From Octopus vulgaris (lineage: Eukaryota), in contig OX597815.1 of NCBI GenBank assembly GCA_951406725.2, positions 172,670,001 to 172,734,000 on the forward strand: a stretch of DNA of 64,000 bases, read 5' to 3'. Shown one piece after another: positions 4,425 to 62,659 of this stretch (the stretch's first letter is position 1; every line of letters starts with the position of its first letter). The notes under the pieces are model-generated. The model made no database searches and was not told the DNA's origin. It was given only the letters and a program-made list of their open reading frames with translations. Made by a program: the position numbers and the translations under genes.

Positions 4425-5713
4425 TCAGGTCATCCCATAAGTTCTGTCTGAATTTTGAATAAAGAAAACAAGTGATCAAATGTTATATTTAATTGAAATT
4501 TAATCCTCAATGTACGTTCCCTGATTATCTGTAACTTCCTTCCATCTATTTACAAGCTTTTTAATCCCATCAATGTAAAACTCTTTTGGTTTCAGAGCAA
4601 AGAACTCTGAAATGTCAGTTTCGACCTCCTCCTGGCTTGCGAAAGTTATGTCCCACAAATGATTCTGTAAACTATGAAATAAATGGTAGTCTGAAGGAGC
4701 AAGTTCAGGAGAATAAAGTGGATGAGGAATGTTTTCCCAATCAAGCTCTTCGATCTTCTGTGATGTGATCTTTGCAGTGTGGGGTCGTGCATTGTCCTGA
4801 TGAAACATCACTCCTTTTCGATTCACTAAAGCAGGTCTTTTTTTTTCTTCAAAGCTTGGTTCAAATGCTCTAATTGCTAACAGTAGACTTGAGCATTGAT
4901 TGTTGCATTAGGTAGTAACAATTCAAAGTGAAATACTCCTTTGCAATCCCACCAAATAGAGAGAAGAACCTTTTTTCCATGAAGTTCCCTTCTCGGTTGT
5001 GGCTGAGCTTTTTCCCTTTTACCAAGCCACTGTTTACAATGTTTAACATTTCGATAGAAGATCCATTTTTCATCACCAGTCACAAGACCATCTAAAAAGG
5101 GTGAAATGAGTTCACGAGAATGAAGAGAAAAGCAGATGTCAACTTGGGATTTGCGGTTGCTTTTGGACAATTCATGAGGCACTCATTTTTCAAGTTTAGG
5201 AACCTTTCCAAGCTGTTGAAGATGACGATGAACAGTCGTATGGTTTGAACTAAGCTTTATTGCCAATTATTCAACTGATAATGCAGGATTTTCTTCAAGT
5301 AATGTCCCAAGGAGCTTATCATCAAACTCAACTGGACATCTTGTTCGATCTTCATCTTCAAGTCTGAAATCTCCACTTCTGAATTTTGCAAACCATCTTC
5401 TTCAAGTTCTTTCATTCAAGCATTCTTTCCCATAAACTAAGTGTATGTTTCAAGTCGCTTCGGCTGCAGAGTTTCCTTTTTTGTACTCATAAAGCATTAT
5501 GTGCTGCAAATGCTCTTTGGATACTTCCATGTTAGAAAGGGTTTTAATCAAAGAAATTTAATTCTATTATTCTGTAAAATATTATTTAATTAGTTTAAAT
5601 ATACACAAATGCATAAAAATAATATTTAATTCCATTAGACATTCTAAAACACTATTAAATTTCATTCAATTTTAAAAAAGGTAAAATCAGACAGAACTTA
5701 TAGGATGACCTAA
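4425..5713 (-). mobile_element. Full-length (about 1.29 kb) decayed mariner element
   Basis: About 30-bp TIRs (TCAGGTCATCCCATAAGTTCTGTCTGA / TCAGACAGAACTTATAGGATGACCTAA), with TA on the left. Confidence 0.95.
4500..5530 (-). pseudogene. Mariner transposase pseudogene
   Basis: Starts MEVSKEHLQHIMLYEYKKGNSAAEAT* (premature stop). Contains VPHEL, VTGDEKW, HQDNARPH and YSPELAPSDY. Has stops and frameshifts. Confidence 0.95.
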
Positions 5714-47123: not shown

Positions 47124-47649
47124 CTCTCTCTCTCTTAAGAAGCCTGTCTTCAATAGATACATCTTCAAAGGTGAAGTATTTTGTAAGGTACTGACATCTT
47201 TTGTAGAAAAAAATTAAAAAACAATCCTGAAAAGAAATGTCTTTTCTTTGGCTAGAGACATTTATTTATAGCTAAGCTCCTAGTGCAGTTTTTGAAGACA
47301 TGAGTATGCAGGAGAGAGGGGATACTTCTTTTTTTGTACCTGTATTTATGTGGTACGTATATAGATAAGCATCACCATCAGCAACAGCAGCAGTAGTAAT
47401 ATTATTATCATCACCACCAGCACTGCCATTATCAATACCAAAATAACACCATCATGTGGTCAATCATTATGCTAGAAATAGCTTCCAAATCTCCCTTAAA
47501 TCACACCGTATCATCTTAGATAAAGAAAAAGTACATTAAAAAATGCAGTTCATTATACACCTTAAAAAAGATAAGATGGCCATATCTTGAATAATTTTGA
47601 TTACAGGTATGCTGAAAGAAGGCTTAATTGGGATTAAACAACAAAATAA

Positions 47650-47797
47650 TTTCTTTATTTACATTATTTACATTTGACGGATATTTGTCTTCATCTTCTT
47701 TGTTGTTAACATGTTTCGGCTGATATACCCTCCAGCCTTCATCAGGTGTCTTGGGGAAATTTTGAACCTGGGTTCTCATTCCTAAGGTATTTTTCGA

Positions 47798-47832
<35 letters not shown>

Positions 47833-47903
47833 TCACTGCCTGGAATCAAACTAAGAATCTTGGTGTTAGTAGCCCGCGCTCTTAACTACTAATGCATATG
47901 CCC
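47650..47903 (-). mobile_element. tRNA-headed short element with (AAT)n spacer and 3' hammerhead-like fold
   Basis: Head GGGCATATGCATTAGTAGTTAAGAGCGCGGGCTACTAAC...AGTTTGATTCCAGGCAGTGACC (47829-47903), then (AAT)n, then GACAC-CTGATGA-A-GGCTG(10 nt)CAGCC-GAAA-CA (47707-47750). Confidence 0.7.
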
Positions 47904-48429
47904 AAGGACATATGGCATAGTGGTCATGAGAATTGAACTCATGACCTTACAATCATGAGCTGAATATCCTAACCACTAAGCCACACACTTTCACATCATA
48001 TATAAACTAGTTGTCTAAGAATTATAATAGTGTAAGAATACCTGTAAAAAATAAAGATTTTAAAAAATTTCCACCTTCTCAAGTAATGATAATAATAATC
48101 CTTTCAACTAATAAGCACAATGTTTGAAATGCAGTTCATTATACACCTTAAAAAAGCTGATTGCATCAACCGTCAGTGTTTGACTGATACTTATTTTATT
48201 GACCCAGAATGGATGAAAGACAAAGTCAACCTCTTCAGAATTTGAACTCAGAATATAAAGACAGACAAAATGCTTCTAATCAATTTTTCCTGTGTGCTAA
48301 CAATTCTGCCAGCTTGCCATCTTAATGAAAACAATTATCAATAATCCTTTCTTTATATAATAAACATAATAATAGTAACAACAACAACAACAATTAATAA
48401 TAATGATAATAATAATAACTATCACTATG

Positions 48430-61120: not shown

Positions 61121-61980
61121 GTCTTTGCACAGCTTCTAATGCTAGAGATGTACTATAGTGTCAGCTGTTCACTACCAGTGAACTAAGGTAACGCCTCTTA
61201 TTTTTCAAGCACCTTCTGGAGAATTCAAGTGGTTCCAAGCAGTGCTGTTTTCTGTAAGTGCTCCACCCTTATTGCAGCCCCTACTTGTTCCATGTAGTTC
61301 TCGAGATTTTTGTTCACTGTTCCCAGGGCTCTGACAATTATTGGTACTACTGCTACCTTTTTCATTGACCACAACTACTTAACTTCCCAAGCTAACCTGT
61401 CAATCTCTCGACTTTTCTTTTTTCCTTATTGCATACCTTGTTGTCAGCTGGGCATGCTATATCAATGATCCAGCATAGTTTGTTTTCTTTCTCAATTAAG
61501 ACTATGTCAGGCTTCCTATTCTCTATCTCATGGTCACACTGAATCATAAAATTCCATAGGATCTTTGCATTTCTATTTTCGATGATGCCTTCAGGTTTGT
61601 GGTTGTACCAATTTTTTGCTCTGTCAAGTCCATGCTTGTTGCAGAGTGTCCAATGGACAAGCCTGGCTATATTGTCATGGCATATCTTATATTCCTTCTG
61701 GGCTAGTGGCATACATTGGCTGGTATGCCATATGGGTTTCACTGTTTTGTCCACAGATTCTGCACTTATCACTTTCTGCTGTTTTGTCTATTCTGTATTT
61801 TATATAGTTTGTTCTTAGTGCTTGCTCTTGGGCAGCACAGATTAGAACTTCCGTTTCTGGTTTTAAATCCCTTTTAGTCATCCACAGCCATCTTTTTTCT
61901 CTGTCTGTTTTCAACATCCCTATGAAATTAATCATGTATTCTTTACCCACCTATTTTCAGTTTCATTTGTTTTCAGTTGC
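61121..61980 (-). mobile_element. Dong/R4-clade non-LTR retrotransposon, 5'-truncated, embedded in (TAA)n
   Basis: LKPETEVLICAAQEQALRT, zinc knuckle CRICGQNSET..H...C, HDNIARLVHW, RKPDIVLIEKENKLCWIIDIACP (RLE PD..D), EHLQKTALLGT. (TAT)n on both sides. A second 3' end lies at about 60950-61080. Confidence 0.92.
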
Positions 61981-62460: not shown

Positions 62461-62659
62461 ATTTTGTTGTGTCTGGGGAGAGTCATACTGCCTTAATAAC
62501 GAACACACTCACCAGTTCAATTTCCACTAATTTACTTATTTTTCTTATGTCTTCCAAAATTTTGGAAGACACAAAATAAAAAATATAAGAGTGGAAATTG
62601 AACTGGTGAGTGTGTTAGTTATTAAGGCAGTTTGGCTCTCTCCCCGGACACAACAAAAT
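62461..62659. repeat. About 200-bp near-perfect palindrome
   Basis: Centre GTCTTCCAAAATTTTGGAAGAC. Arms ACACACTCACCAGTTCAATTTCCACT / AGTGGAAATTGAACTGGTGAGTGTGT and ATTTTGTTGTGTC / GACACAACAAAAT. Confidence 0.95.

Follow-up and report, generated by a model that had tools for sequence, protein, structure and literature searches.

A tRNA-derived segment in the pLTR of a Penelope-type element of Octopus vulgaris, a candidate promoter of SINE-like solo copies

Introduction

The window, a stretch of 64,000 nucleotides of the Octopus vulgaris genome (contig OX597815.1, positions 172,670,001 to 172,734,000), carries on its minus strand a short repeat in which a tRNA-like head is followed by a hammerhead fold. 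The original prediction, made from the letters of the window, took it for a separate SINE with a self-cleaving ribozyme that uses the machinery of Penelope elements for its own spread. Is this repeat a lineage of its own, or a part of the element that would move it, and what is the role of the tRNA-like head?

Composition of the window copy

The following features were placed, with positions counted from the first letter of the window.

47655..47905, minus strand: almost certainly a solo pLTR copy of a Penelope/Poseidon-type element (PLE), lacking the tail of about 28 nt at the terminus; ORF-bearing copies are collinear with it at their 3' end and in their upstream pLTRs
47829..47903, minus strand: tRNA-derived head, as judged from sequence
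47886..47896, minus strand: A box, damaged in the window copy (in intact copies it reads differently)
47842..47852, minus strand: B box, with a C-to-T change within GTTCGA (from the alignment)
47799..47828, minus strand: (AAT)n microsatellite, its length varying among copies
47655..47779, minus strand: N-terminal coding stretch of the Penelope ORF, overlapping the hammerhead (ATG at 47777-47779)
47708..47750, minus strand: minimal type I hammerhead motif; three nt are missing at the predicted cleavage site
47746-47750 and 47739-47745, minus strand: GACAC and CTGATGA of this motif
47733-47737 and 47718-47722, minus strand: stem II arms GGCTG and CAGCC, then GAAA
47655..47674, minus strand: 9-nt repeat, the end point of tail-less arms
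47906..47925, plus strand: inverted stub matching the 5' end of the head; the junction is at a small palindrome of the head itself
47926..47988 (approximately), minus strand: head of a different tRNA-type SINE, with no SINE body to either side of the element (RF00005, 24.6 bits)

The head, the (AAT)n spacer, the hammerhead core and the inverted stub thus all lie on the minus-strand locus where the original prediction had placed them, and the damage that it read at the cleavage junction is a loss of three nt compared with intact copies. Both the promoter and the ribozyme of the window copy are predicted to be dead. The boxes in the head were placed with what we take to be the A and B box consensus. 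Neither head nor hammerhead of this copy was called by Rfam or ARAGORN, and no target-site duplication was seen around it.

The stub is separated from the head by 2 nt, and the 16 bases of its core (47909-47924) are all complementary to a common variant of the head. Similar stubs are present in L002, L047, L150, L163 and L173. The stub of the window copy adjoins the neighbouring SINE head, which is unrelated to the pLTR head, abundant, and overlooked in the original prediction; its 24.6 bits fall below the RF00005 cut-off of 29 bits. As the last bases of the stub also resemble the body of this SINE, the exact junction is ambiguous. A reading of the whole stub as SINE body was rejected as a poorer fit than the 16/16 match to the head, though its last 12 bases suit both.

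Other repeats were observed in the window. A perfect 30-nt direct repeat (47541-47570 and 48127-48156, 586 nt apart) encloses the element and the neighbouring SINE head; it does not lie at the edges of the element. Two frames on the minus strand, of 135 aa (4503-4907) and 131 aa (61395-61787), resemble the C-termini of a mariner-type transposase and an R4/Dong-type LINE protein, respectively. A long, MITE-like inverted repeat is located at 62476-62641.

Family size and samples

The genome (2.8 Gb, 227 contigs) contains 2,808 candidate matches to the window copy. Genome-wide, a 38-mer of the head has 568 exact matches and a 28-mer of the hammerhead 3,523, with none for either reversed control, so that at family level the feature is far beyond chance. 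At least half of the sampled words of the element were also present in 20 public runs under five organism labels.

Four samples of copies were read. For the hammerhead-anchored sample the 3,523 places were read up to number 94, within one contig (C1), which gave 93 copies at 88 loci after one duplicate was dropped. The head-anchored sample comprised the first 30 of the 568 places, the RT-anchored sample the best 30 of 150 scored matches, and the sample anchored near the 5' end of the ORF the best 30 of 43 matches. Exact-match anchors bias these samples to less decayed copies, and some insertions were counted via both arms.

Origin of the head

Head and hammerhead are linked in 27/30 head-anchored loci, as the original prediction had claimed, which rules out chance nesting. 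A head better preserved than that of the window copy resembles a tRNA from end to end. The head of copy L032 agrees with genomic tRNA-Arg(TCG) at 49/73 positions with a score of 63, above all of 200 shuffles (best-of-set; mean 35.7, maximum 53). The head of the window copy scores 43 against the genomic tRNAs, inside the range of its shuffles (maximum 44 of 200). These comparisons covered 25 distinct tRNAs of eight anticodon types; tRNA-Arg(TCG) is a tentative isotype. Rfam gave no tRNA match on the head, and ARAGORN found 0 genes in 30 loci.

No pair of A and B boxes was found in the 3' regions of 53 related PLE frames, which were drawn from 79 metagenome loci and lie in some cases off the true ORF end, nor in two copies of a second PLE family of the octopus. 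This family, here called family B (L267, L372), is younger, with many intact frames of 781 aa. Its hammerhead-like core starts with U instead of C, and its 3' UTR of 900 nt contains repeated CCAAT-like boxes and a TATA box.

The parent element

In several copies the sequence that precedes the head is the end of an ORF. This parent ORF is a frame of 569 aa in which RT and GIY-YIG-type motifs were read by eye. RVT_1 scored 27.7 bits on it and reached 36 bits in a second copy, with a cut-off of 29.6. Its homologs at E<=1e-20 number 2,923, and PF01541 was assigned to 4 among the 120 listed. On the element's own EN region the Pfam GIY-YIG model gave no match, and a PDB search returned weak RT matches only (best E 0.014). 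From the domain order and the motifs we take the element to belong to the Penelope/Poseidon clade.

In 22/30 RT-anchored loci the stop codon is followed by 26 nt and then by the head or a deleted remnant of it; of the remaining eight, four end before the stop, one fuses the EN region to the hammerhead half and three were left unread. At the other end, the tail of a pLTR continues directly into the ORF in at least 12/30 loci anchored near its 5' end, a partial tandem arrangement. The per-column majority of the copies has a stop-free frame of 834 codons, running from an ATG just past the microsatellite through the hammerhead into the RT ORF. The order of the element is therefore stop codon, 26 nt, tRNA head, (AAT)n, ATG, in-frame hammerhead and tail. 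With a pLTR in partial tandem the start codon follows the tRNA segment at a distance of about 100 nt, which puts the segment at the expected position of a PLE promoter. It is close to certain, in our judgement, that the sequence in the window is a Penelope pLTR with a captured tRNA segment.

The original prediction had assigned mobilisation to the Penelope machinery, which is in accordance with the RT-anchored loci, where an ORF with RT and putative GIY-YIG-type motifs precedes a 3' end collinear with the window copy. It had also proposed to match the 3' half to autonomous Penelope termini; the hammerhead half belongs to the terminal repeat of the element and encodes the N-terminus of the ORF. 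The N-terminus of one homolog (P0003) matches the peptide encoded by the pLTR, hence the in-frame hammerhead is not peculiar to this family. The N-termini of P0003 and P0119 resemble translated hammerhead motifs. An overlap of ribozyme and reading frame in other PLEs as well is suggested by these protein comparisons.

Hammerhead motif

The hammerhead junction is full in 75 of the 93 hammerhead-anchored copies, carries the 3-nt deletion in eight and is otherwise changed in ten. The family has the CUGANGA and GAAA core, stems I and II, the UH site and the palindromic loop 3; in the predicted fold of the intact motif both stems are of 5 bp, an unpaired A precedes stem II and the palindrome is AACGUU. 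A family majority, as called for in the original prediction, restores GAAA-CG-UU-GUGUU with stem I, and the lack of a UH site in the window copy is due to its 3-nt deletion. The intact motif matches the minimal PLE hammerheads which, in the available text of PMC4209133, are inactive as monomers and of low activity as dimers. For the octopus motif a dimeric hammerhead fold of -22.1 kcal/mol was calculated, which is not the predicted minimum (-30.6).

The 3-nt deletion occurs on both subfamily backgrounds. It was present in 10/32 ORF-linked pLTRs versus 6/38 short copies, a comparison subject to ascertainment bias. This in-frame deletion (window 47708-47717) was also observed in the ORF-linked copies L085, L087 and L254, including an upstream pLTR. 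Either a ribozyme-dead sublineage may have transposed, or the deletion site may be a slippage hot spot.

Structure of the insertions

How often the inverted head is present had been posed as a check, and inverted arms proved common, adjoining the 5' end in 52/88 hammerhead-anchored loci and in 22/30 head-anchored loci. Where both arms reach the 3' region, the tail was found on one arm in 31/33 pairs by pattern and on both in none; in the other two it was on neither by pattern and on one by eye. This is the PLE layout with an inverted arm and the tail at one end described by Craig et al. 2021 (available text of PMC8557442), with a tail of about 28 nt instead of the 30-40 given for PLEs. Target-site duplications of at least 7 nt were present in 8/33 pairs, compared with 3.3% of mismatched pairs (rough flank calls), and measured 9-13 nt.

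The head starts with a palindrome, GCCC-NN-GGGC, already present in the parent, and many head-to-head junctions sit there; we infer that it lets two cDNA ends anneal. Most copies in the sample are solo or joined head to head, and no head-to-tail tandem arrays were seen among them, with isolated partial head-to-tail cases in L075 and L188. The (AAT)n of some copies is an insertion site of other elements. In L050 and L119, LINE-like sequence within the (AAT)n parts the head from the hammerhead; we assume this insert to be R4/Dong-like.

5' ends of the copies

The 93 hammerhead-anchored copies start at -11..+25 around the edge of the head (38), within the head (13), past the head (30) or in the ORF or UTR (12). 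After removal of one segmental duplicate, 38 of the 49 copies that reach the head end in this zone of 37 nt, and 0 of the remaining 11 in the next 97 nt. The end rate in the zone exceeds that of other zones by a factor of 9.5-16 (P<1e-12, the zone having been picked with the data in view). In the head-anchored sample 16/30 copies end at -2..+7, with a mode at -1..+3, about 13 nt before the A box. A cut by RNase P at the first base of the tRNA was set aside as the cause of this pile, as many ends keep 6-7 nt of leader. Another 17 ends pile at the microsatellite. At least some of these are later insertions, but a same-strand head further upstream was found for only 2/17, and this second pile was left out of the start-site evidence.

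Of the few upstream pLTRs that reach the head zone, one starts in it and three extend past it (P=0.05 compared with short copies). This counts against the promoter reading preferred below, or is neutral, and suggests that long templates are frequently multimers or circles. Family B has solo pLTRs too, though their share is higher in the family of the window copy. As a control, the ends in family B were placed relative to its TATA box: seven of 30 lie 30-60 nt after it (two of these look like one duplicated insertion), 21 beyond and two before. Ends that follow a TATA box in this way indicate that 5'-end piles can mark the start site of a pLTR. The pile at the edge of the head suggests that transcription starts there, which we hold to be very probable.

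Transcription of the element

The preferred reading is that the captured tRNA segment is a Pol III-type promoter from which SINE-like solo pLTRs arise, to which we give a probability of roughly 0.6. A tRNA-derived promoter in the pLTR would account for the thousands of short SINE-like copies with a ribozyme motif in the genome. Under this reading the segment between stop and start codon would serve as internal promoter, with transcription starting about 13 nt before the A box. Since the monomeric minimal hammerhead presumably does not cut, short transcripts would stay whole and could be copied back into the genome by the reverse transcriptase and endonuclease of the element. Two cDNAs, one primed on each side of a break, would probably join head to head, aided by the palindrome at the 5' end of the RNA.

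In favour of Pol III are the position of the starts relative to the A box, the closeness of stop codon and ATG, and a lack of T4 runs. No T4 run is present in the majority ORF of 2,502 nt, where 2.9 are expected after synonymous permutation (P=0.027) and 4.2 after base shuffling (P=0.012). Family B has 8-9 such runs in 2,343 nt at equal T content. In 45 related ORFs the median is 4.9 runs per kb, with one ORF free of them. The absence is a modest result, partly explained by a low Phe content common to close homologs, and the comparison is of a majority sequence with single copies. The T4-free ORF among the 45 (L296, 1,419 nt) also shows the highest identity (48%) among the related ORFs from the metagenomes, but it lacks a tRNA-like segment and carries T runs in its 3' UTR. 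It is conceivable, but on balance doubtful, that Pol III transcribes the whole coding element, with T4 lost over 2.5 kb for that reason. Protein would then be made from RNA without a cap. As the start codon precedes the ribozyme cut, an unbroken frame would exist only in RNA that is uncut or has been re-ligated into a circle.

The same element could also be read by Pol II, its start being set by a TATA-like motif near the stop codon, with the tRNA segment and AAT tail as the passenger of an old retrocopy in the UTR. We regard this as rather unlikely. The TATA-like motif TTTATAAG occupies -30..-23 in 23/27 ORF-linked copies read and fits a Pol II start equally; AT-rich motifs near -30 occur at Pol III genes too. 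Family B solo pLTRs do start after a TATA box, but the pile in that family is far weaker than at the head (7/28 versus 38/49). The gap between stop codon and ATG is only about 135 nt and mostly tRNA segment and microsatellite, whereas the corresponding 900 nt or so of family B hold CCAAT-like and TATA motifs. The lack of a T4 run in the ORF also counts against Pol II. In its favour, a capped coding RNA is easier to translate, and no variants private to short copies were found in a comparison of 38 short with 41 long copies, so that there is no sign of short copies becoming source genes; 13 of 225 positions differed at P<0.05, about the number expected by chance. The available text of PMC2377424 also places the promoter of D. 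virilis Penelope within the pLTR and likens it to those of LINEs.

Three raw RNA runs gave equal depth on both strands, with 72-89% of reads continuing into unrelated sequence. No piles of molecule starts or ends were present in them, and such passive coverage is uninformative on the polymerase.

A third reading dispenses with a promoter. Reverse transcription of long RNAs would halt or fold back at the palindrome or at the tRNA-like fold, and truncated copies would accumulate. The GCCC-NN-GGGC palindrome does lie exactly at the pile and serves many head-to-head junctions, and the majority sequence is one and the same for short and ORF-linked copies. Yet 10/38 copies that start at the head lack an inverted arm and many others are joined to arms that start elsewhere; moreover, a stall should occur where the reverse transcriptase first meets the fold, at its 3' side, and not at its 5' edge. 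This explanation is improbable.

Although short copies far outnumber long ones (12/93 hammerhead-anchored copies reach the ORF, and read depth drops more than 100-fold beyond the tail), an independent tRNA SINE lineage with a borrowed Penelope 3' end, as originally proposed, is very improbable, because the autonomous element itself holds the head between stop and start codon, two polymorphisms occur at similar frequency in short and long classes, and the partner carries the whole unit, where a SINE has a head independent of its partner and shares only the 3' end.

Comparison with known elements

The papers cited here are compared by their available text. Penelope/Poseidon PLEs (Cervera and de la Pena 2014, PMC4209133; Craig et al. 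2021, PMC8557442) share with the octopus element an ORF with RT, followed in the octopus by a putative C-terminal GIY-YIG-type domain, the partial tandem pLTR, the inverted 5'-truncated arm, the tail on one end, and a minimal type I hammerhead with an unpaired base before stem II and a palindromic loop 3. The A/B-box segment in the pLTR, the predominance of solo pLTRs starting at it and the T4-free ORF set the octopus element apart from the PLEs described. The feature is real, and the tRNA-derived segment in the pLTR is what is new relative to the PLEs in the text available.

Sm-alpha/Sj-alpha of Schistosoma (PMC6765202) are likewise short repeats in which a hammerhead comes after a Pol III-type promoter. 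Those units are in tandem and released by cleavage, with no autonomous partner named in the text available, whereas the octopus copies are dispersed or head to head, have a hammerhead of the minimal PLE type and correspond to the end of an autonomous element. The TRIMp3 elements Helenus, Cassandra and Ajax (Kojima 2024, PMC10886601) likewise have a small-RNA-derived Pol III promoter in the terminal repeat. They are non-autonomous LTR elements, with autonomous partners expected to be transcribed by Pol II and to lack long shared LTR stretches, while the octopus segment sits in a coding PLE. Animal non-LTR retrozymes (bioRxiv 10.64898/2026.07.22.740005) and non-autonomous Chlamys elements such as MRC1 (PMC8557442) resemble the short copies as non-coding, pLTR-related units probably moved by PLE proteins. 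Retrozymes are defined by tandem units, in the same preprint, and such arrays were absent from the sampled octopus copies; the words 'tRNA' and 'promoter' are absent from its main text.

Titles and abstract openings in the literature gave no report of a PLE with a tRNA promoter. The available parts of PMC4824008, PMC6962438 and PMC8490949 hold nothing on a tRNA promoter within a PLE, and the octopus repeat annotation in PMC13282606 lists many unclassified SINE and Penelope families, with no SINE-Penelope link in the text available. The short form may already be catalogued, as one of the known octopus SINEs or under a Repbase or Dfam name.

Such tRNA SINEs of octopus, OK, OR1 and OR2, are reported to have been described by Ohshima and Okada in 1994. 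They too are tRNA-derived high-copy repeats.

Significance

The octopus family provides a direct link, at sequence level, between a SINE-like repeat and the Penelope machinery, and with it a way for SINEs to originate from the promoter end of the very element that moves them. If the whole element were indeed transcribed by Pol III, it would be a LINE and a SINE in one. The high copy number makes several questions on PLEs testable, namely the polymerase and start site, the role of the in-frame hammerhead and the origin of the inverted arm. For annotation, it means that thousands of apparent tRNA SINEs in this genome are Penelope ends.
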